The notes: generated by a model not told the origin, from the sequence alone. 64,000 nucleotides of DNA from Methanomassiliicoccaceae archaeon (GCA_040776945.1 JAXGZN010000001.1:768001-832000), one strand, 5' to 3'. Positions 55,723-64,000 are shown, numbered from the stretch's first letter. Made by a program: numbers and translations.

Positions 55723-57555
55723 TCACTTGATGTGGTCCAGGGCGAACGAGCCAATGCTCAGCCCGTGCCGGGTGGCGTTGTAGCGGATGTACGATCGGGA
55801 CTGCACGTCGGTGATCCCCCTCACCATGAAGAAGGTCCGGAGCTGGTCTATCTTGAAATCGATCATGCCGTCCATGATGGAGCCGAGCATCTGGATCTCC
55901 TGCTCCCCATGCATGCCCTTCTCGATGGTGTAGAACGAGACGGCCCGATCGCGCTTGCGCCGGCCGCAGAACGGGGTTAGGAAGCGGAAGATCTGCGTGG
56001 GGTCGGAGTACGCGATCAGCGTGGAAAGGGTACGGAACGCCAGTCGGTAGTACTCATGCTTCTCCCTGAACGCCTTGGACGCCTCCTCCACCGCGTCCAT
56101 GATCTGGTCATGGGCGGTGGGCTCCTCGATATAGGTGGTATACTTGTCCATGGTGGTGTCGCCCATCCCTCGGGAGTATGAGTCGACGTACCGGACCAGG
56201 CCCAAAGCCTCATAGTCCTCGTACGAAGGCAGCACCAGCTTCATCTCCTCGCGGAGGTCCGCAGGGGTCTTGTCCGTCGTGACCCAGATAGCGGGTATGC
56301 CCTTCTTCAGCCCCTCGGCGATGAACTGGTCAACCATCGTCTCCTTGCCTACGAACGGCGGACCGTGAACCAGGACGTTGGATCCGAATGGCACGCCGCC
56401 CAGCAGCAGGTCGTCAAGGCGGGGATTGCCGGTCTTGGCCTTTGCCGCCTCGGCCTCCAGGGCGATCTCCTGTTCCTTATGCTTCAGCTCCTCCTCGATC
56501 GCTCCCATCTCCCGCCGGCGGAGGTCGGCCTCCTTGCTGCGAATGTACTCCTCCTTGGCCTTGAGGTCCCGCTCCTTCTTTTCCACCTCGCCTCGGAGCT
56601 CCTCAAGGCGTTTCTTAAGCTCCGCCTCCTCCAGACCTCCGGTGGAGCGCTTGGCCTCTTCCAGCCGCCGCCTCTCCTCGGTCGTCTTCCTCTCCCTGAA
56701 GAGGAGGTCCTCCTCTCGGCGGGACAGTTCTTGCTCCTTGTAACCGATGATCTCCTTAAGGCCCTTCAGCTCGTCCTCCCTCTCGGTCAGGAGGTCCTTC
56801 ATGCGGCCAACGGTCTCCTGCAGCTCCAGGATGCGCTTCTCCTTCTCCTGGAATCCCTTGATCTTCTCGTCGATGGCCTTGTTGGCCTCGGGCTTGGACA
56901 TCCTGGCCAGCTGCAGCTCGTCATCTCGGAGCTTGATCTCTATCTCCCGCGTCCTAAGTTCGGCCTCCAGCTGCTGCACGCGCCCCTTCAGCTCCTCCTC
57001 GCGGCTCCTGGCCTCGGCCTCCTTCTCGCTCAGCTCTGCCCGGTACCTCTCCATGATGATGGCGCTCTCGGCCCCGTTCATCCCCAGGGCCCGCTCCCGC
57101 ATCTCCAGGTCGTTCTCCTTGTCCCTCAAGGCCGCCTCGCGGTCCTTGAGCGATTCCGGCGCTGAGGCCACCGCGCGGTCTCGAAGCTCCGAGTTCACCT
57201 TGGTGAGGCGGGCCACCTCCGCGCTCAGGCGGGCCACCTCCGCGCTCGTACCCGCAGCGTCCCCGCCGCCGGCCGAGGCAAGCTTGCGGAGCTGGGCGAT
57301 CTCCGCCTCGTAATTCGCTATCCGCTCCTTGAGCTCGGGGTCGAGGTCCAGGACGTCAGGGGTATCGCTGTAGAACGTGGTCTGCCGTTCAGGGTCCTCC
57401 TCCAGCCAGGCCATAAGGGTGGACTCACCGGCCATCCAGCGCCGTAGCTCCTCGGCCTGGTCGGCGCTGCCGTCCTCTGGTCCTGAGGGCATTGCCCGAG
57501 AACCTTCCTCGCTCTTCTGAGGTACCCCTTCTTTGGCCTTTTTTCTGCGAGCCAA
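55723..57555 (-). CDS. Coiled-coil protein with a C-terminal degenerate KaiC-family ATPase domain
   Basis: About 300 aa heptad region, then KTGNPRLDDLLLGGVPFGSNVLVHGPPFVGKE, YVDSY, IMDGMIDF. Confidence 0.85.
   Translation of the reverse strand: MARRKKAKEGVPQKSEEGSRAMPSGPEDGSADQAEELRRWMAGESTLMAWLEEDPERQTTFYSDTPDVLDLDPELKERIANYEAEIAQLRKLASAGGGDAAGTSAEVARLSAEVARLTKVNSELRDRAVASAPESLKDREAALRDKENDLEMRERALGMNGAESAIIMERYRAELSEKEAEARSREEELKGRVQQLEAELRTREIEIKLRDDELQLARMSKPEANKAIDEKIKGFQEKEKRILELQETVGRMKDLLTEREDELKGLKEIIGYKEQELSRREEDLLFRERKTTEERRRLEEAKRSTGGLEEAELKKRLEELRGEVEKKERDLKAKEEYIRSKEADLRRREMGAIEEELKHKEQEIALEAEAAKAKTGNPRLDDLLLGGVPFGSNVLVHGPPFVGKETMVDQFIAEGLKKGIPAIWVTTDKTPADLREEMKLVLPSYEDYEALGLVRYVDSYSRGMGDTTMDKYTTYIEEPTAHDQIMDAVEEASKAFREKHEYYRLAFRTLSTLIAYSDPTQIFRFLTPFCGRRKRDRAVSFYTIEKGMHGEQEIQMLGSIMDGMIDFKIDQLRTFFMVRGITDVQSRSYIRYNATRHGLSIGSFALDHIK
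57206..57247 (-). repeat. Perfect 21-bp duplication adding one coiled-coil heptad (SAEVARL x2)
   Basis: aggcgggccacctccgcgctc at 57206-57226 and 57227-57247. Confidence 0.9.
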
Positions 57556-59276: not shown

Positions 59277-59828
59277 ATGCGCCGATCAGGCCGCCTGACC
59301 ATGGCACTGTACAACTCCTATGATCCCAGGAGCTTCCGCGAGGCCCACCGCCGAGCTCTGGCCCGGGCCGGGCCGCTGGCATTGGCATTCGGCTTCAACC
59401 TTGCTACCTTCGGCTTCCCCTTCTCCAAGGACCTTGCCACTCCCCAGGAGGTCGCGGACTGGATAGCCACGACCACGTCCATAGGCGAGCATGGAGGGTT
59501 CTTGAAGGAACTTACCGCGAAGGGGCGCTTCCAGACCTTCGATTATCCAAACCGCGGCTTCCCGCCCCAGATGGGCGAGGCAGTGCTCACCACCAGGAAG
59601 CCGGAGGCGGGGAAAACGACGAGCATCGAGGAGATCGCCTCTGGCCTGAGGAGGGGGCAAAGCGTCATGGTAATCTTCGGTCTAGGGCCGAAGGGCGCCC
59701 CCAAAGAGGTCTTCGAGATGACCAAGAAGCACTTGGACATCACTCCGGGAGGATATTCCTTGGAGACCTGCACCGCCATGGGCGTTGTGGTCGGGGCCAT
59801 CGCCTACCGCCTCGATGAAGAGAGATAG
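59277..59828 (+). CDS. DUF531 family SPOUT-like protein
   Basis: LYNSYD...EAHRRALARAGP...FNL; TTSIG; GFPPQMG; FGLGPKG; HLDIT...SLETCTAMG. Confidence 0.8.
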   Translation: MRRSGRLTMALYNSYDPRSFREAHRRALARAGPLALAFGFNLATFGFPFSKDLATPQEVADWIATTTSIGEHGGFLKELTAKGRFQTFDYPNRGFPPQMGEAVLTTRKPEAGKTTSIEEIASGLRRGQSVMVIFGLGPKGAPKEVFEMTKKHLDITPGGYSLETCTAMGVVVGAIAYRLDEER

Positions 59829-59975
59829 GGCACCCTCCATGTCATTTAGTATTATCGATTTATATTCTCATAATTATCAAAAATAAAAAATCCCAGACTA
59901 AGATTTATATCAAGAAAATTTGTGGTTCTCAATCCCAGGAAACTAGAACGGTCTAGGCCTGGATGAGGGATCGAA

Positions 59976-60560
59976 ATGTTAAGGAAGAGAGCCACCATTG
60001 CAGGAATATTGTTAGTCATGGCCGCCGTGCTCAGCACCGGCGCTATCTATGCGTACTTCAGTGACACCGAGACCAGCAGCGGCAACACGTTCACTGCTGG
60101 TACCCTTGACCTCAAGGTCAACGGGGTCGATAATCCGGTATCCTCGTTCACAGTAGGCAACGTTTATCCCGGAGCCAGCGGCTCCGTGTCCGTCACCCTG
60201 ACCAACTCGGGGACCATCGCCGGCACCCTGACCATGGCCATCGTCTCGGTGGTAAACCTCCCGGGCGTCACAACAGAACCGGAGGCGGCCCTGGGCACCC
60301 CTGACAACGGCGAGCTTGGCGCCAACATGCAGATCACCATCTGGGTGGACAGCGACGGGGACGGGACCCTTGATGCTAGCGAGTCCACGCTGTACAGCGG
60401 CCTGCTCAACGGAGCAGGTGGAGCGCTCAGCGTAGGCAACCTGGCGGGCGGCGAATCTACCCATGTCGGCATAGCGTACAACGTCCCGACCACCGTTGGC
60501 AACGAGATCCAGGGCGACATCTGCACCTTCAGTATCCAGTACACCCTTGTCCAGGCGTGA
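59976..60560 (+). CDS. TasA/camelysin-like protein with a SipW-type signal peptide (probable fibre major subunit)
   Basis: STGAIYA|YFSDTETSSGNTFTAGTLDLKVNG; NVYPG...LTNSGT; GNEIQGD...FSIQYTLVQ. Confidence 0.88.
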   Translation: MLRKRATIAGILLVMAAVLSTGAIYAYFSDTETSSGNTFTAGTLDLKVNGVDNPVSSFTVGNVYPGASGSVSVTLTNSGTIAGTLTMAIVSVVNLPGVTTEPEAALGTPDNGELGANMQITIWVDSDGDGTLDASESTLYSGLLNGAGGALSVGNLAGGESTHVGIAYNVPTTVGNEIQGDICTFSIQYTLVQA

Positions 60561-61078
60561 GCCGGACGGCATGGAGAGGTAGGATGAGGCCACGGCCAGG
60601 TCACCTGGGGGCAGCGTTCCTTGCTGTCTTCCTAGCTCTGGCCCTGGCCAGTGTCCTGGCCCCCACCTTCGGGTGGAGGATGGATGTGGTGCAGAGCGGC
60701 AGCATGTCCCCGGCCATCGGGGTTGGCGACCTGGTGATCATCTCACCATGCGCCCCCTCGGACGTCCGCGTCGGGGACGTGGTCTGCTTTCGATCCGAAG
60801 GCAGATTGGTCTGTCACCGTGTCGTCTCCATCGACCCGATCGACCAGACCATCCTGACCAAGGGGGACGCCAACGCGGCCCCGGACCCGCCTGTCCCGTT
60901 CGGCGACATGGCGGGAAGGGTGAGCGTCAGCCTGCCCCTCCTCGGACATGCGGTCTCGTTCCTCAAGGGCCCGTTCGGGTGGGCCCTGATGATATTGCTC
61001 GCTCTCTTGGTCACGGTTGCCGGGAGGGAGGACGGTACCGAAGATGGAAAGGCTGAGATGAGGGAGGGGAAGACCTGA
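60557..61078 (+). CDS. sipW: SipW-type (S26B, Ser/His) signal peptidase I
   Basis: VVQSGSMSPAIGVGDLV, VGDVVCF, VCHRVV, TKGDANAAPD, PLLG plus TM; start at GTG 60557 or ATG 60584. Confidence 0.88.
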   Translation: MSRTAWRGRMRPRPGHLGAAFLAVFLALALASVLAPTFGWRMDVVQSGSMSPAIGVGDLVIISPCAPSDVRVGDVVCFRSEGRLVCHRVVSIDPIDQTILTKGDANAAPDPPVPFGDMAGRVSVSLPLLGHAVSFLKGPFGWALMILLALLVTVAGREDGTEDGKAEMREGKT

Positions 61079-62436
61079 GGCCCTTCAGAGCCTGGGCGTT
61101 GGTGTTCGCGCTGTTCGCCGTTGCGATCATGGCCACCAGCGACGTTCACTGCGCACTCGTGGACAGGGAGACCGCGGCCTCGAACAGCGTAATCGGCTAC
61201 ATCCCCAGCCTGTGGAGGCAAACCTCTCACGCCGATTTCCTGCAGGGAACGGCGGCCGGAACGCAGGTAAGCGACGACTCGGACAGCGTCCATCTGAGGG
61301 CGCATTACACAGATCCCGGGGTGTATGTCCTGGTCGGCGGACGATCGACCGCCTTCTACCGCTACAACATAACCTCAGGGATATGGTCCGAGATGGCGCC
61401 CATTCCAGCCGCCTTGGCCGACGGCGCGGCGATGGTGTACGACGGCTCGGCACAAGTCTACGCGCTGGCCGGGGGCTCGAGCAGTGCCCTGTTCCGCTAC
61501 GATGTCCTGGCCAATACCTGGTCCTTGTTCGCCACGGTACCCGCCAACGTAGGCAAAGGAGGGGACATCACCTGGGACGGCACCTATTTGTACGTGATGG
61601 GAGGAGCATCCGGCCGACAGGTCTGGAGGCTCGACGTGGCGAGCCTGACGTGGCTCCAGATAACGACGGTGCCGGGAGCCACGGGCACAGGGGCCTCGGT
61701 CCTGTACAACAAAGGCTATCTGTACGTAACCAAGGGAGACGGCACCAAGACCTTCTGGAGGTACGATCTGAGGTCAGGCAGGTGGGCAGCGATGGCGAAT
61801 GCCGGGGGCAAGATCGGGGCCGGATCGGACCTGATCGCCGGCCCGAGAGGCGCACTGTACGTTCTGCAGGGGAACAACGGAAGGCAATTGGCCTCGTACG
61901 ACGCCACTGTCAATGCCTGGTCCCGTCTGTCCAACCTACCCAATGCCGTGAGCTATGGCGGCGGCCTCACCTACGGGGGCTCAGACATCATCTACTCCAT
62001 CAACGGCAACGACCAGAGATACTTCCACTCGTTCAACAGGACGCTCAATTCATGGACCCGGCTGGCCATGGTGCCTTCCGCAGTGAGCGACGGCGGGTGC
62101 TTGGTATACGTGCCTCCGGTGCCGATAGATTTCCCACCGTCGGGAACACTGACCTCGGCAACCTTCGACTCCGGGCAGGCCGGGACGAGATACGTCCATG
62201 CATTCTGGGACCGGACGGTGCAGCCAGAGACCTTGGTGAAGATCGAAGTTCGGGCGTCGGACTCGTTGTCCGAAGGCTCCCCCGCCGCTGAATGGAGGTC
62301 CCTGGGGACGGGAACATCAGGGGCTATGGACGACCTCACCGGCAGGTATGTGCAGTGGAGGGCCACCCTTACCACCTCGGACGCTTCCATGACCCCGGAG
62401 CTGCAGGAGGTGAGGATATACTATTACCACGTTTAG
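61075..62436 (+). CDS. Kelch beta-propeller protein with a SipW-like N-terminus; probable CTG start
   Basis: MRPFRAWALVFALFAVAIMATSDVHC|ALVDRETAASNSVIG; six Kelch repeats (YxxxGG...FxRYD....W); C-terminal SGTLTS...GRYVQWRATL...TPEL sandwich. Confidence 0.82.
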   Translation: MRPFRAWALVFALFAVAIMATSDVHCALVDRETAASNSVIGYIPSLWRQTSHADFLQGTAAGTQVSDDSDSVHLRAHYTDPGVYVLVGGRSTAFYRYNITSGIWSEMAPIPAALADGAAMVYDGSAQVYALAGGSSSALFRYDVLANTWSLFATVPANVGKGGDITWDGTYLYVMGGASGRQVWRLDVASLTWLQITTVPGATGTGASVLYNKGYLYVTKGDGTKTFWRYDLRSGRWAAMANAGGKIGAGSDLIAGPRGALYVLQGNNGRQLASYDATVNAWSRLSNLPNAVSYGGGLTYGGSDIIYSINGNDQRYFHSFNRTLNSWTRLAMVPSAVSDGGCLVYVPPVPIDFPPSGTLTSATFDSGQAGTRYVHAFWDRTVQPETLVKIEVRASDSLSEGSPAAEWRSLGTGTSGAMDDLTGRYVQWRATLTTSDASMTPELQEVRIYYYHV

Positions 62437-64000
62437 GCGCTGCTATCGCGCTCAGCTTCATTTTACTGCTGCCTATTGCCTCGCAGCCGGTCCAAGGGGC
62501 CGGGGCGCCCATCGATCTGGTCATGGGCGAGCGGGGGGGCCTGCCGTGGGCCATCGAGAACATCAGGCCGGGAGACAGGGGGAGCGAGAGCACGGTGATC
62601 AGCAACGTGGGGAGCGGGACAGGTTATCTGAGGATATGGATCAGCGGCATCGAAGGAACCGACCGCGGCGGGGACGGAGCGGCGCTGGCCAAGTACATGA
62701 GGTTCTCACTGGTCTCGGACGGCCTCACCACCACAATGGCCCTGCCCGCGCCCATCGACCGTTTCCCCGCCTCTCCCACCGATCGCGGGCAGCTTGTCAT
62801 CGGACCGATAGCTCCCGGCAGTTCGACCTCCCTTAGGTGGACCTGGGAGTTCACCGACACCGGGGACGACCAGAACGACGCGCAAGGAGACGGACTGAGC
62901 TTCAGCATCAGCTACATGCTCACCGATGCGCCCCCGCCGGCCGCGGCCTACAAGTACGTTGCAGTGGACCTATTTGGCTGGCAGAACGTGGTGGAGACCG
63001 ACAGCGCAGGGGTGGCGCAGCATGACGTCGATGCGGTGGACCCTCTTGGGATACACCATCTCAAGATCCTAGCAGGCACCAGGATGATCGATGAGGAAGG
63101 CACGGTCCCCGCCCGCATAGTGCTTTCGGTCGCTGGGCACGATGGCGGCGCTGCCGGGCCGGCAGGGGCCGTAGCGGTCTCCCCTGCGTACGTTCTGCAG
63201 GGCTTCCTCGCCGACGGTTCGGAGGCAAACCTCACCTTCTCGGCGCCGGTGATCGTCATGATCGGTGTCAACGCCTCGATCGTGCCCGCTGGCTACCTGC
63301 CCATGGGGGTCCATGCGCTAAACGGCGACCGGTGGACCCGCCTGCCATCCGCAGGCCTTGAGATCTCCCGCTGGTCGGCCGCCGGGGCTATTCAGCGTAG
63401 CGGCGTACTGACAGTGTTCGCCGCCCCGGTGATGGGCGACAGCGGCGCGCTGCACGTCACCGATATGGTCGTACGGCCAGACACCAGGAAGAACGGATGG
63501 CCAGTGGCCATTTCCACGACCATCGGACGCTCGATCGAAGTGACCGCCCAGATTATCTGCGGAGGGAACTCTTCTGGCATATGGACGGTGGAGCTGGCCA
63601 TCGACGGCGTGGTGGGCAGCTCGGCCTTGCTGGTCATGGAGCCGGGGGAGCCATCGACGGTGGTCCTGACCGCATCGGGGATCGGGGACGGCGAGCATAC
63701 GGTTACGCTCCTCGATCGCTCCATGGTCTTCCGCGCCGGGACATATGTCGACTGGGCGCTCATAATAATATCCAATATCACGGTGTTCTCCTCGCTGCTG
63801 ATCGTCAGGCAGCGGCACCTCGTGCGCCATCCCCACAGTTCCGGCGGAGAGGCACCGCAGAAGGATGAGGTACCACTCGGGACGACGTCAGAGAGGCCCG
63901 AGGCGGCCGATCTCCAGATCGTCGAATCCATAGGAGAAGTCTGGGAGGCCAGGCGGACCGCGGAGCAGGTGGTGGAGCGCCGGCTCCGCGAGCGGCCGTA
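62418..64000 (+). CDS. Membrane-anchored protein: Sec signal, TasA-like domain, beta-rich domains, TM; probable ATA start; runs to the window edge
   Basis: Manual translation is open from 62418 to 64000: (M)LLPRLGAAIALSFILLLPIASQPVQG|AGAPIDL...NIRPGDRG...ISNVGS...LAKYM...GPIAPGSS...QNDAQGDGLSFSISYML...; TM WALIIISNITVFSSLLIV near 63755-63805. Not in the ORF track. Confidence 0.8.
   Translation, partial: MLLPRLGAAIALSFILLLPIASQPVQGAGAPIDLVMGERGGLPWAIENIRPGDRGSESTVISNVGSGTGYLRIWISGIEGTDRGGDGAALAKYMRFSLVSDGLTTTMALPAPIDRFPASPTDRGQLVIGPIAPGSSTSLRWTWEFTDTGDDQNDAQGDGLSFSISYMLTDAPPPAAAYKYVAVDLFGWQNVVETDSAGVAQHDVDAVDPLGIHHLKILAGTRMIDEEGTVPARIVLSVAGHDGGAAGPAGAVAVSPAYVLQGFLADGSEANLTFSAPVIVMIGVNASIVPAGYLPMGVHALNGDRWTRLPSAGLEISRWSAAGAIQRSGVLTVFAAPVMGDSGALHVTDMVVRPDTRKNGWPVAISTTIGRSIEVTAQIICGGNSSGIWTVELAIDGVVGSSALLVMEPGEPSTVVLTASGIGDGEHTVTLLDRSMVFRAGTYVDWALIIISNITVFSSLLIVRQRHLVRHPHSSGGEAPQKDEVPLGTTSERPEAADLQIVESIGEVWEARRTAEQVVERRLRERP

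Follow-up and report, generated by a model that had tools for sequence, protein, structure and literature searches.

A four-gene TasA-type cassette of a Methanomassiliicoccaceae archaeon carries the predicted parts of a membrane-anchored fibre

We describe a computational analysis of a gene cassette in a stretch of 64,000 nucleotides (the window) from a Methanomassiliicoccaceae archaeon (GCA_040776945.1 JAXGZN010000001.1:768001-832000); throughout, the cassette is known from its sequence and from predicted structures alone. It consists of four overlapping + strand genes at 59976-64001 (Table 1), which encode a pilin (g1), a signal peptidase (g2), a Kelch-bearing donor-strand protein (g3), and a TM-anchored TasA-like protein (g4). 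A first-pass annotation had recognized four ORFs in one operon-like run spanning 59976..64000. All four were recovered by ORF reading on the + strand, and the gene set stands; the span, however, falls short, as the stop codon of g4 ends at 64001, one base beyond the window.

Table 1. Features of the cassette (positions in the window unless given as residues)
Feature	Position	Strand	Basis
Intergenic region 5' of g1, AT-rich; likely promoter and short 5' leader	59830..59975	+	sequence reading
g1, TasA-type major pilin, 194 aa	59976..60560	+	PF12389, TIGR04088, PDB profile matches
g1 SipW-class signal peptide	residues 1-26		
g1 predicted N-terminal donor strand, begins YFSDTETSSGN	60054..60095 (residues ~27-40)	+	conservation, TasA alignment
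g1 jelly-roll core	residues 41-194		
g1 DxDxDG-like loop	residues 123-132		
g2, archaeal-type (S26B, SipW-like) signal peptidase I, 173 aa	60557..61078	+	TIGR02228
g3, donor-strand-only cap/tip protein (candidate)	61075..62436	+	ORF reading, homologue alignment, model pLDDT 84.3
g3 start, CTG (overlaps g2 stop; aligned with relatives' GTG/ATG) or TTG	61075 or 61099	+	relatives' alignment
g3 mature N-terminal strand ALVDRETAASNSVIGYIP	61153..61206 (residues 29-46, A5 numbering)	+	monomer and complex models
g3 beta-sandwich, N-terminal half	61213..61305	+	conserved W-x-Q-T and D-F motif; kept in propeller-less relatives
g3 six-bladed Kelch propeller, inserted in sandwich	61306..62121	+	Kelch_6, structural match
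g3 beta-sandwich, C-terminal half	62122..62433	+	G-R-Y-V-Q-W-R-A ... E-V-R-I-Y-Y; family's most conserved part
Shine-Dalgarno-like GGAGGTGAGG, then ATA (62418), within g3 3' end	62405..62420	+	sequence reading
g4, acceptor-only membrane anchor/terminator (candidate), ~527 aa	62418..64000	+	stop codon 63999-64001
g4 D1, TasA-like jelly-roll without donor strand	62499..62942	+	hhalign to g1, PF12389 in family
g4 D2, ZU5-like beta domain	62973..63428	+	structural match to 3ud1_A
g4 D3, CARDB/FN3-like Ig domain	63444..63749	+	structural and profile matches
g4 C-terminal TM helix, then basic residues	63753..63824	+	model helix 446-469
g4 cytoplasmic tail, one predicted helix	63825..63998	+	model helix 499-524

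The cassette is present in RNA libraries: contigs with at least 99% identity span g1-g2-g3 (X2, 59971-62103; X3, 59971-62306), and others bridge the g3/g4 junction (X1, 61337-62495; X5, 62287-62565); such contigs may hold DNA, and transcript ends and levels are not readable from them. GC content drops to 0.52 in the 59500-59999 bin, which holds the region 5' of g1, and the metatranscriptome contig starts at 59926 (X1), 59948 (X5), and 59971 (X2, X3) give a weak hint of a promoter and leader there. g3 has CTG at 61075 versus GTG or ATG at the aligned position in 10/10 relatives. No ATG, GTG, or TTG lies between GGAGGTGAGG and the g4 signal peptide, and the ATA at 62418 is the probable, non-canonical start of g4; RNA contigs over this site show no sequence differences. 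As neither gene has a canonical start codon where one would be expected in this genome, how strongly g3 and g4 are expressed is uncertain.

Based on profile searches, g1 is a TasA-type pilin. It matches Pfam Peptidase_M73 (PF12389) with 43.6 bits (cut-off 22.5), TIGR04088 (cognate_SipW) with 30.7 bits (cut-off 19), and, among PDB sequences, 8aur_A (E 8.5e-5) and 5of1_A (E 1.7e-4), consistent with its first description as a SipW-type signal followed by an N-terminal strand and a TasA-like core. The PF12389 match is confined to residues 4-81, and beyond residue 81 the core is tied to TasA by profile search alone. In the PDB search, F28 aligns with the second residue of the TasA fibre chain 8aur_A; the donor strand of TasA comprises residues 28-38 (PMC9674648), and A26, Y27, F28, D30, and N37 are invariant among 16 g1 sequences. 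Within its own genome, the g1 profile matched only g1 and g4. The Pfam name Peptidase_M73 would fit a reading in which these two are monomeric surface proteins or camelysin-like metalloproteases and not fibre subunits; however, g1 has a single, non-conserved His, no His is among the invariant columns, and TasA, the type member of the family, forms a donor-strand fibre (PMC9674648), and we hold this reading to be exceedingly improbable.

The start of g2 overlaps the stop of g1 by 4 nt. g2 matches TIGR02228 (archaeal signal peptidase I) with 87.4 bits (cut-off 51.85) but reaches only 57 bits against the Bacillus SipW equivalog NF046067 (cut-off 190). Because the latter score is far under its cut-off, g2 is SipW-like and not SipW, and the earlier naming of gene 2 as SipW holds for the type of peptidase but not for SipW itself. 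g2 is the sole TIGR02228 match over cut-off in its own genome. Such matches are present in 15/41 genomes, in 11 of them (this genome and 10 relatives) inside the cassette; G001 and G007, two cassette-free genomes of the same genus, have no TIGR02228 match at E <= 0.01. Peptidase presence among the relatives tracks the cassette, and g2 is predicted to be its dedicated peptidase.

The D-x-E-T-x3-N spacing that the first-pass annotation had seen in both g1 and g3 is real and is conserved among g3 relatives. The same annotation had placed a Kelch propeller within a beta-sandwich, and this is borne out by Kelch repeats (Kelch_6, 61.4 bits), by the match of model residues 80-351 to the six-bladed propeller of 6hrl_B (Z 35.6, rmsd 1.7, 263 aligned), and by relatives that lack the propeller and retain both sandwich halves (L016, L017, L018, L020; ~175 aa). 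The g3 core did not match TapA chains at E <= 10. The g3 family has at least 1,747 cluster representatives at E <= 1e-3, and D-x-[ED]-x(3-5)-N occurs near the N-terminus in 84 of the best 150. Among 60 members scanned for inserts, we found Kelch in 10, DUF2341 and/or Laminin_G_3 in 22, an ice-binding domain in 1, a disaggregatase repeat in 1, and none in 26. Such varying inserts would look like those expected of a swappable tip module.

Modelling the g3 N-terminal peptide on g1 had been proposed as a check. In the complex models, the mature N-terminus of g3 forms a strand in the g1 sheet, with an ipSAE of 0.76 in three runs compared with 0.01 for the best of 3 controls; in silico, the predicted interface thus passes a mark reached by 116/157 solved complexes and 2/215 mismatched pairs, with shallow, custom-built input alignments of 16 and 14 rows. 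Partner pLDDT was 94, and contact agreement among runs was at least 97%. g3 29-46 runs antiparallel to g1 178-193 and also contacts g1 52-64 and 42-48. Resemblance of the g3 strand to the N-terminal strand of g1 itself and to solved TasA fibres may also contribute to the pass. We also considered that g3 could be a mere further substrate of g2, i.e., a secreted or surface Kelch protein outside the fibre, with its motif serving g2 recognition and not strand donation. TIGR04088 treats the motif as part of the signal-peptide region and is matched by 3/18 g3-family members, with g3 itself not reaching E 0.1, and recognition by the peptidase could be the sole role of the conserved motif. However, the complex model puts exactly residues 29-46 in the g1 sheet, while the score falls to 0.01 when g1 is swapped for an unrelated protein; the segment is disordered in the g3 monomer model (pLDDT < 50); the family retains the motif while the inserted domain swaps; and TapA and TafC are described precedents (PMC9674648, PMC11821415). 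We regard the substrate-only role as unlikely.

g4 has a plain signal peptide, unlike the SipW-class signal of g1, followed by a TasA-like core without the strand, in line with what had been read from the sequence. In hhalign, D1 aligns with g1 at a probability of 98.4% (E 4.9e-15), pairing g1 41-194 with g4 29-173; the homology therefore begins past g1 segment 27-40, the predicted donor strand. The predicted mature N-terminus lies 4-6 residues ahead of the first core strand in 17/17 g4 sequences. g1 N-E-I-Q-G-D-I-C-T-F-S-I-Q-Y pairs with g4 N-D-A-Q-G-D-G-L-S-F-S-I-S-Y, and this g1 segment is strand 178-193, with which the g3 strand pairs in the modelled complex. PF12389 is matched at E <= 0.1 by 17/17 g4-family members, by g4 itself with 18.2 bits, under the Pfam cut-off of 22.5, and by homologue L016 from model position 41 of 196. 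The g1 profile matches D1 at E 8.2e-9, whereas the D1 profile reaches TasA chains at E 0.2-0.3 only, and when the entire g4 model was compared with known structures, TasA was absent from the top 50 matches, places that were filled by matches to D2 and D3. The extra domains and TM anchor previously ascribed to gene 4 are present in the model. D2 (model residues 186-337) matches 3ud1_A (Z 10.4, rmsd 3.3, 131 aligned), which speaks for the fold only. D3 matches 6sd0_A (Z 9.5) and the CARDB domain 3idu_A (Z 7.7) structurally and 6s6z by PDB profile (E 1.6e-3), and CARDB is matched in L016 with 34.2 bits. The TM region is hydrophobic in 12/12 aligned sequences; the tail has low pLDDT over 470-498 and no Pfam family among the homologues scanned.

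Relatives of g4 were found in 12/40 related genomes, and in 10 of these 12 the four genes are present in the same order; of the two remaining loci, one ends at a contig edge and the other is a broken g4 alone. Five relatives have an empty site, where DUF531 directly adjoins the convergent downstream gene. Related cassettes are present in three further Methanomassiliicoccales MAGs and three Dehalococcoidia/Chloroflexi MAGs, with other g3 inserts or with extra strand-bearing proteins in g3's place, and a fourth Dehalococcoidia/Chloroflexi-type MAG (L041) has g4 only. This synteny survey bears out the suggested co-conservation: the cassette genes are inherited as a block.

We suggest that the product of the cassette is probably a fibre of the TasA superfamily, anchored in the membrane and built by donor-strand exchange, which would need no chaperone or usher. 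According to this model, Sec would export g1 and g3, and g2 would cut both SipW-class signal peptides, after A26 in g1 and between VHC and ALVD, after the Cys, in g3, exposing the N-terminal strands. g3, which has a strand but lacks an acceptor domain of the TasA type, would insert this strand into the g1 sheet beside the g1 C-terminal strand; g1's own N-strand would then be free for the next g1, and the g1 shaft would grow as described for TapA/TasA. g4, with its ordinary signal peptide, conserved acceptor edge strand, and no donor strand, would receive the last g1 strand, ending the chain and tying it to the membrane via the C-terminal TM helix, with the ZU5-like and CARDB-like domains as a stalk. 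Assembly would proceed in the order g3, g1, g4, placing the Kelch propeller at the distal tip as a putative binding module, and we infer that the Kelch domain might mediate adhesion. Three findings agree with the first-pass proposal of such a fibre, i.e., the N-terminal domain of g4 is TasA-type without a donor strand, the g3 N-terminus docks in the model, and the genes are co-conserved. In silico, its division into tip, shaft, and base is well supported, with the docking of g1 onto g4 as a putative step.

Alternatively, the product may be a matrix fibre that resembles TasA and is secreted without an anchor, of the sort described for Bacillus biofilms and P. abyssi AbpX, with g4 as a separate surface protein, assembly platform, or fibre-end receptor and not the base. 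TasA and AbpX are matrix scaffolds, no anchor is reported for P. abyssi AbpX in its preprint (bioRxiv 10.64898/2026.01.04.697558), the authors of the study on Tat-fimbriae (Tafi) too consider unanchored 'nonfinalized' chains (PMC11821415), and g4 carries a cytoplasmic tail and two further domains beyond D1. However, D1 is a g1 homologue lacking specifically the strand segment while keeping the acceptor edge strand, g4 is co-inherited with g1-g3 in 10/12 loci and in both archaea and bacteria, and no other use readily suggests itself for an acceptor-only domain carried by a TM helix; an unanchored fibre therefore seems to us rather unlikely. Another possibility is a TapA-like role for g3, as nucleator or chaperone that starts polymerisation and not as a lasting tip adhesin, with the Kelch domain otherwise used, e.g., in binding S-layer or cell-wall glycans to hold the fibre start at the cell. 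TapA is described both as a nucleator and as an anchoring factor (PMC9245690, PMC9674648), and because insert-free g3 relatives exist, the core g3 function needs no binding module. By contrast, if g4 is the acceptor bound to the membrane, geometry would put g3 at the distal end, and inserts of such variety (lectin-like LamG, Kelch, ice-binding) are typically those of binding modules that face outward, making this alternative very unlikely.

In chaperone-usher pili (FimH/FimA, PapH terminator; also summarised in PMC11821415), donor strand versus groove sets the subunit order, adhesin first and terminator last, and assembly depends on a chaperone in the periplasm and an usher in the outer membrane. 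The subunit-order logic of our anchored-fibre model is alike; however, the proteins are unrelated, the cassette has no chaperone gene, and the cell has no outer membrane. The proposed parts list and logic, known here from genes and models, are the same as those of Tafi in Haloarcula hispanica and Natrinema sp. J7-2 (TafA/TafE pilins, TafC tip, TafF membrane terminator, TafD signal peptidase; PMC11821415, PMC12337348), for which the order TafC-TafE-TafA-TafF is modelled (PMC11821415). As proposed there, Tafi has a two-part tip protein that joins an N-terminal donor strand to a binding domain facing outward, a shaft pilin, a dedicated signal peptidase, and a terminator with a Sec signal peptide, a pilin-like N-terminal domain of ~140 aa, and C-terminal membrane helices. 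In contrast, export is by Tat there and by Sec with a SipW-class signal here; the adapter pilin (TafE), DUF5305 accessory (TafG), and regulator (TafB) are absent from the cassette; the tip is laminin-G-like there and a Kelch propeller in a split sandwich here; the candidate anchor here combines one TM helix with ZU5-like and CARDB-like domains; and g1 is recognisable as PF12389 from sequence. NCBIfam Taf-family models did not match g1-g4 at E <= 0.1.

In tapA-sipW-tasA of B. subtilis (fibre 8AUR), to which g1 is linked by PF12389 and TasA chains, the TapA N-terminus is the first donor strand for TasA, resembling the pilin donor strand and modelled to complement the pilin, and the operon has a dedicated ER/archaeal-type signal peptidase (PMC9674648). 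In the cassette, these two features have their counterparts in g3, as modelled, and in g2. The gene order is unlike that of the cassette, and Bacillus as described there has no acceptor-only, TM-anchored TasA paralogue. For AbpX of Pyrodictium abyssi (PDB 9sj2/9rhp), calcium-linked donor-strand complementation is reported, and most archaeal AbpX loci have predicted tip proteins and minor subunits (bioRxiv 10.64898/2026.01.04.697558). Both systems pair a TasA-superfamily protein with an adjacent TIGR02228-type peptidase, and the DxDxDG-like loop of g1 may be set beside the AbpX calcium link. However, the g1 profile matches AbpX weakly (E 0.013-0.018) and TasA better, and the AbpX-linked peptidase is described with ten TM helices whereas g2 is short; the preprint's main text has 0 occurrences of Methanomassiliicoccales. 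[quoted passage not shown] No peptidase dedicated to AbpA was found close to abpA (Wang et al. 2022, PMC9245690), and the first-pass statement that AbpA is cleaved by a SipW-type peptidase is not upheld. The study describes no acceptor-only anchor, and the PDB matches of the g1 profile at E <= 10 did not include AbpA.

The architecture had initially been noted as one not seen described in this lineage. This holds for the lineage but not in general, as it is proposed for Haloarcula Tafi (PMC11821415) and tip and minor-subunit genes are predicted at AbpX loci (bioRxiv 10.64898/2026.01.04.697558). Judged by analogy to these accounts, the concept is not new: the parts list had already been proposed for Tafi (TafC/TafA/TafF/TafD) and for AbpX loci, and the candidate donor-strand-only initiator matches TapA-TasA. 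Rather, what is new here is the g3 family, which counts at least 1,747 clusters, has inserted domains that can be swapped, and lacks a Pfam model. Altogether, the cassette would be a variant of a known fibre concept in a new lineage.

We conclude that the four overlapping plus-strand genes that close the window, here called the cassette, are real and coherent; their logic is known, and the lineage is new. g1 encodes a TasA-type pilin, g2 a signal peptidase I, g3 a candidate Kelch-bearing cap or tip, and g4 a candidate transmembrane anchor. The cassette directly follows the gene for a DUF531 protein, itself preceded by that for deoxyhypusine synthase, and because the next gene downstream is convergent, the cassette is bounded on both sides. 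In the genome sequence, the g4 stop codon ends one base beyond the window. There is a 4-nt overlap between g1 and g2, and likewise between g2 and g3 if g3 starts at its CTG codon, and the start of the g4 signal peptide lies within the last codons of g3. Further upstream, a minus-strand gene encodes a protein of 610 aa whose N-terminal half is long, charged and coiled-coil-like and which also carries a KaiC/DUF7504 ATPase domain; at two related loci (L022 and L025), a second, divergent deoxyhypusine-synthase-like gene (~40% identity) adjoins the DUF531 gene.

Coordinates of the cassette, its neighbors, matching RNA contigs and related features (unprefixed coordinates are those of the window; G000:C1 is the source genome, in which the window spans 768001-832000, and L-numbers are loci)
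Feature	Coordinates	Strand	Remark
Cassette (g1-g4)	59976-64001	+	
DUF531 gene	59277-59828		
Gene downstream of g4	64023-65054		convergent
Gene for 610-aa protein	55723-57555	-	
g1 acidic loop	60342-60371	+	residues 123-132
g3 CTG codon	61075	+	overlaps g2 stop
g3 TTG codon	61099	+	next canonical start
g4 ATA codon	62418	+	
RNA contig, run X1	59926-61365		g1, g2, beginning of g3
RNA contig, run X2	59971-62103		g1, g2, most of g3
RNA contig, run X3	59971-62306		g1, g2, most of g3
RNA contig, run X1	61337-62495		bridges g3/g4 overlap
RNA contig, run X5	62287-62565		bridges g3/g4 overlap
336-aa ORF	G000:C1:750314-751324		L045:1318-2328
Doubled g3 (G015)	L019:3424-6066		881-aa frame
Two genes in place of g3	L040:5527-6890		
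Response-regulator-type genes	L034:1682-3135; L041:1853-3682		
Second deoxyhypusine-synthase-like gene	L022:7357-8361; L025:5764-6765		

Part of the stretch is present in 21 sequencing runs from 15 studies, 17 of these runs being recorded as RNA. Contigs from four metatranscriptome runs match the window at an identity of at least 99%; none of them covers 59407-59607, a gap that proves nothing. g1, g2 and most of g3 lie within a single contig in each of two runs, the g3/g4 overlap is bridged in two, and g4 is covered by further contigs; RNA libraries may include DNA, and these contigs show neither single transcripts nor levels, nor can their depth rank the genes. RNA contigs from two runs begin 5 nt upstream of the g1 ATG, one of them ending loosely in adapter, which gives a weak hint of a transcript start there.

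Using the window g4 as the query, we found g4 relatives in 12 of the 40 relatives searched (8/10 in the genus, 11/23 in the family, and 1/17 in other families of the order) and none in the remaining 28. The co-conservation on which the first-pass annotation had made its reading depend is borne out: all four genes occur in the same order at 10 of the 12 loci, directly after the DUF531 gene in 9 of these 10. At L023, the contig begins inside g3. L025 (genome G011) holds only a g4 relative, broken by an in-frame TAA and lying beside the DUF531 gene; g1 to g3 and the peptidase were not found there, and the locus looks like a decayed cassette. In five cassette-free genomes the site is empty, the DUF531 gene and the convergent downstream gene being direct neighbors. 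When one genome per species was scanned, 16 loci were returned, nine of which were records of genomes already counted. Among the seven new ones, three are Methanomassiliicoccales MAGs (all four genes in two, a contig starting in g3 in the third) and four are Dehalococcoidia/Chloroflexi MAGs. Two of the latter (L034 and L036) have g1, g2, a gene for a g3-like protein (635 and 1,055 aa) and g4; L040 has g1 and g2, then genes for a second TasA-like protein (195 aa) and for one of 252 aa, then g4; and L041 shows g4 only. The two L040 proteins that stand in place of g3 both carry the g3-type strand motif (S-L-V-D-T-E / S-F-I-D-Q-E) and may, judging from their sequences, represent a minor pilin and a further cap. 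In Dehalococcoidia, the cassette lies behind two or three response-regulator-type genes; the archaeal cassette has no regulator gene.

g1 (194 aa) scores 43.6 bits against PF12389 (Peptidase_M73; gathering score, 22.5), with only residues 4-81 aligned, and 30.7 bits against TIGR04088 (cognate_SipW, a model of the SipW-dependent type of signal peptide and the conserved strand behind the cut; cut-off, 19) over residues 11-44. A profile of 11 g1 orthologues matched the TasA fiber chain 8aur_A (E = 8.5e-5), the TasA monomer 5of1_A (E = 1.7e-4) and AbpX chains (E = 0.013-0.018) in the PDB. F28 of g1 aligned to the second residue of 8aur_A, and the donor strand of TasA, the N-terminal strand inserted into the sheet of the next subunit, comprises residues 28-38 in the part of PMC9674648 available; therefore, residues 27-40 of g1 are the expected donor strand after a cut behind A26. 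g1 also has a DxDxDG-like acidic loop (V-D-S-D-G-D-G-T-L-D), a pattern retained by most orthologues and reminiscent of the calcium-linked assembly reported for AbpX in the accessible part of bioRxiv 10.64898/2026.01.04.697558.

g2 (173 aa) scores 87.4 bits against the archaeal signal peptidase I model TIGR02228 (cut-off, 51.85), and its sequence contains the motifs S-G-S-M, H-R-V and G-D-A-N, which we take to be the catalytic boxes of signal peptidase. The first-pass annotation had named this gene SipW. That name stands in part: g2 is SipW-like by its linkage to the cassette, and it falls below the cut-off of the Bacillus SipW equivalog NF046067 (57.2 versus 190 bits). On the basis of this linkage, g2 works like SipW but is not a SipW equivalog. 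The alternative that g2 is the general signal peptidase of the cell was rejected because most relatives lack it. In the source genome, only g2 passes the TIGR02228 cut-off. Matches over the cut-off occur in 15 of 41 genomes of the order, in 11 of these (the source genome and ten relatives) inside the cassette. In G034, the match is on a separate contig from the cassette, which a contig end truncates; G014, G017 and G039 have a match over the cut-off and no g4 match. The cassette-free G001 and G007, of the same genus, have no TIGR02228 match at E <= 0.01. A 336-aa ORF elsewhere in the source genome has a weak TIGR02228 match (E = 0.03), the motifs S-K-S-M, H-R-A-I and G-D-N-N, and no match in Pfam; relatives have similar weak matches in long ORFs. 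From its motifs, this ORF may encode a divergent housekeeping signal peptidase of Methanomassiliicoccales.

g4 had been described as carrying a TasA-like core without the N-terminal strand, and profile comparison upholds this description. Using hhalign, g1 residues 41-194 were placed on g4 residues 29-173 (probability, 98.4%; E = 4.9e-15), with the C-terminal strand of g1 (N-E-I-Q-G-D-I-C-T-F-S-I-Q-Y) paired with N-D-A-Q-G-D-G-L-S-F-S-I-S-Y in g4. This range argues that mature g4 begins where the g1 core begins and that a counterpart of g1 residues 27-40 is missing. In all 17 sequences of the TasA-like domain of g4 (D1), Dehalococcoidia included, only 4-6 residues separate the likely cleavage site from the first core strand. 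All 17 members of the D1 family match PF12389 at E <= 0.1 (best, 2e-7); D1 of the window scores 18.2 bits (gathering score, 22.5), and in L016 the match begins at model position 41 of 196. A search of the whole source genome with the g1 profile returned g1 and g4 D1 only. The D1 profile ranked TasA chains first in the PDB, at E values (0.21-0.27) not significant alone. According to the part of PMC9674648 available, the TasA monomer is itself self-complemented, its residues 48-61 giving way to the incoming strand, and g4 keeps the aligned segment. A self-filled groove in g4 would therefore not refute the idea that D1 is an acceptor, i.e., a domain receiving such a strand.

The g4 model (pLDDT 79.4) comprises a signal helix, D1 (residues 28-175), a ZU5-like domain D2 (186-337; Z 10.4, rmsd 3.3, 131 residues aligned to 3ud1_A), a CARDB/FN3-like domain D3 (343-444; Z 9.5 to Ig-like domains of glycosidases, 7.7 to 3idu_A, a CARDB domain), a TM helix (446-469) and a tail containing one helix. 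Against CARDB (PF07705; gathering score, 22.7), the window g4 scores 15.2 bits and its homologue at L016 scores 34.2 bits. D2 and D3 fill the VIA list for whole g4, in which residues 28-175 are barely covered, and the absence of TasA there is no evidence. Foldseek hits of whole g4 in the PDB (viral envelope proteins, etc.; TM ~0.1, rmsd ~30) were rejected as a multi-domain artefact. A word-indexed search with g4 returned only 10 proteins, one of them annotated with both PF12389 and PF07705. A Pfam scan of the cytoplasmic tails of g4 homologues returned no family, so that a winged-helix tail is a conjecture; most of L016 to L022 share a conserved tail, A-D-Y-K-K-R-V ... N-L-S ... L-E-E-L (alignment columns ~485-560), which the window g4 does not have.

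The g3 model (pLDDT 84.3) runs from a signal helix through a disordered stretch with the strand motif (pLDDT < 50) to a sandwich into which a six-bladed propeller is inserted (residues 80-351; Z 35.6, rmsd 1.7, 263 residues aligned to 6hrl_B); Kelch_6 scores 61.4 bits (gathering score, 25.3). VIA-align on the whole model is dominated by the propeller and says nothing on the sandwich. Four relatives have a propeller-less version of g3 (~175 aa), and one has a doubled g3 with two Kelch-in-sandwich modules and a signal and strand on the first only. For the complex model, mature g1 (27-194; 16-row alignment) was combined with mature g3 (29-455; 14-row alignment; numbering from a reference start at 61069) as the scored partner. 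Each of three runs gave an ipSAE of 0.76, and the best of three controls gave 0.01; 116 of 157 solved complexes attain the ipSAE mark, as do 2 of 215 mismatched pairs, counts that are rough with own alignments. The partner pLDDT is 94, and at least 97% of contacts agree among runs. The confident interface consists of g3 residues 29-46, the first 18 mature residues, predicted to lie antiparallel to g1 178-193 and also to contact g1 52-64 and 42-48, with a few residues of the g3 sandwich contributing as well. Thus, the docking of the g3 N-terminus to g1 anticipated in the first-pass annotation is reproduced in the model, in which g3 29-46 enters the g1 sheet. The model gives in silico support to g3-g1 binding and no proof of it, and resemblance to solved TasA fibers may have helped it to pass.

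The cassette has a Tafi-like architecture: a candidate donor-only tip, a pilin with both predicted donor and acceptor that would polymerize by N-terminal donor-strand exchange, a dedicated peptidase and an acceptor-only membrane terminator that would accept the g1 strand. In the parts of PMC11821415 and PMC12337348 available, the Tafi model consists of the TafC tip, the TafE adapter, the TafA shaft, TafF as a membrane terminator with a Sec signal, and the TafD peptidase, and the cassette follows the same tip-shaft-terminator logic. However, Tafi pilins have Tat signals, while g1 and g3 have SipW-class signals; no twin-arginine motif precedes the hydrophobic core in either N-terminus. None of the NCBIfam Taf models, including TafC (NF052521), was listed for g1 to g4 at E <= 0.1. 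The step from g3 to g1 resembles that of TapA as the first donor for TasA (in the part of PMC9674648 available), and the cassette logic matches the tip and minor-subunit genes described at AbpX loci in the accessible part of bioRxiv 10.64898/2026.01.04.697558. A sandwich profile from the propeller-less relatives found no TapA chain in the PDB at E <= 10 and nothing credible (best, a cystatin-like DUF at E = 0.28). In the ESM Atlas, the best feature score of the short g3 was 0.83 (lead level, 0.9); structure matches had a TM by query of ~0.7, and all they show is that the g3-type sandwich recurs in many multi-domain proteins. Methanomassiliicoccales are named among the orders with PF12389 homologues, without further study in the part of Wang et al. 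(2022; PMC9245690) available, and a literature search, with the supplements of the cited papers outside its scope, returned nothing further on such fibers in this order. Accordingly, the earlier view of the filament as undescribed holds for the lineage; the same logic had already been described for Tafi, TapA-TasA and AbpX.

Both g3 and g4 have unusual starts. In the window, g3 has CTG at the position where a GGAGG-like box is followed by GTG or ATG in all ten relatives, and a start at the next canonical codon would leave the signal peptide with no charged n-region. For g4, only ATA follows a strong Shine-Dalgarno-like box. ATG (or GTG) precedes a normal n-region at L016, L017, L019, L020, L023, L024 and L025, and no canonical start lies between the box and the hydrophobic core in the window, L014 or L015. 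The canonical starts at L021 are far upstream (codons -82 and -61) or inside the hydrophobic core (-18 and -16), the sole ATG at L018 is inside this core, and L022 has no ATG, GTG or TTG in the whole open frame upstream of the signal peptide. An ATA 3-5 nt after GGAGGTGAGG is shared, but the overlapping g3 codons also constrain it. In the window, a candidate GTG or ATG lies 21-42 codons further upstream. Because the RNA contigs list no difference at 62405-62440, the lack of a canonical start does not stem from an error in the assembly of the window. A fusion of g3 and g4 through a frameshift was also considered and was rejected, as six relatives have their own g4 ATG and a normal signal-peptide n-region. 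The non-canonical starts may reflect coupled re-initiation or a deliberately low output.

Of the by-products of this analysis, the most interesting is the g3 family, which is wide and unnamed. We searched 1.84 billion cluster representatives (clusters at 50% identity) with a profile built from the four propeller-less proteins and found at least 1,747 with E <= 1e-3, of which 386 reach 1e-10 and 25 reach 1e-30. Among the best 150 of the 1,747, lengths range from 156 to 5,142 aa, D-x-[ED]-x(3-5)-N occurs within the first 75 residues in 84, and W-x-Q-[TS] occurs within the first 110 in 90; in many members, the C-terminal sandwich half is at the very end of the protein. A Pfam scan covered 60 of these 150 (56 hand-picked up to 944 aa, leaving out those >1,000 aa, and four of ~180 aa) and identified Kelch inserts in 10, DUF2341 and/or Laminin_G_3 in 22, an ice-binding-like domain in one, a disaggregatase repeat in one, and no domain in 26, the four short ones among them. 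In an NCBIfam scan of 18 members, three match TIGR04088, one over the cut-off, and one LamG-bearing member matches TafC by its LamG part only (25.5 bits; cut-off, 410). Source names, where given, are "hypothetical protein" or follow the insert.

Based on these findings, we tentatively propose, as a possibility that we rate below even, that g3-type proteins constitute a large family, as yet unnamed, of modular caps for fibers of the TasA class in Archaea and Bacteria and, together with g4-type acceptor-only TM anchors, make up a minimal four-gene pilus pathway. Each cap would combine a SipW-class donor strand with a split beta-sandwich able to accept almost any binding domain, including Kelch, DUF2341/LamG, ice-binding-like and other inserts. 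The pathway would need no sortase, usher or chaperone, and the assembly order of tip, shaft and base would be encoded only by whether a protein has the strand, the groove or both. Subunit ratios might partly follow from the weak non-canonical starts (CTG and ATA) coupled to the upstream gene.

The methanogenic Methanomassiliicoccales live in digesters, sediments and guts, and metatranscriptome contigs from digesters and sludge contain the cassette. The cassette is a direct candidate for the attachment of these cells to partners or surfaces, and its occurrence in Dehalococcoidia suggests that archaea and bacteria living in the same anaerobic habitats have exchanged it. It is also the most compact full instance to date of the tip-shaft-terminator logic put forward for Tafi, and because its proteins are recognizably TasA-like, this logic could be tested by reconstituting the cassette in vitro. 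Finally, the g3 family provides a collection of natural tip modules that share a single scaffold.
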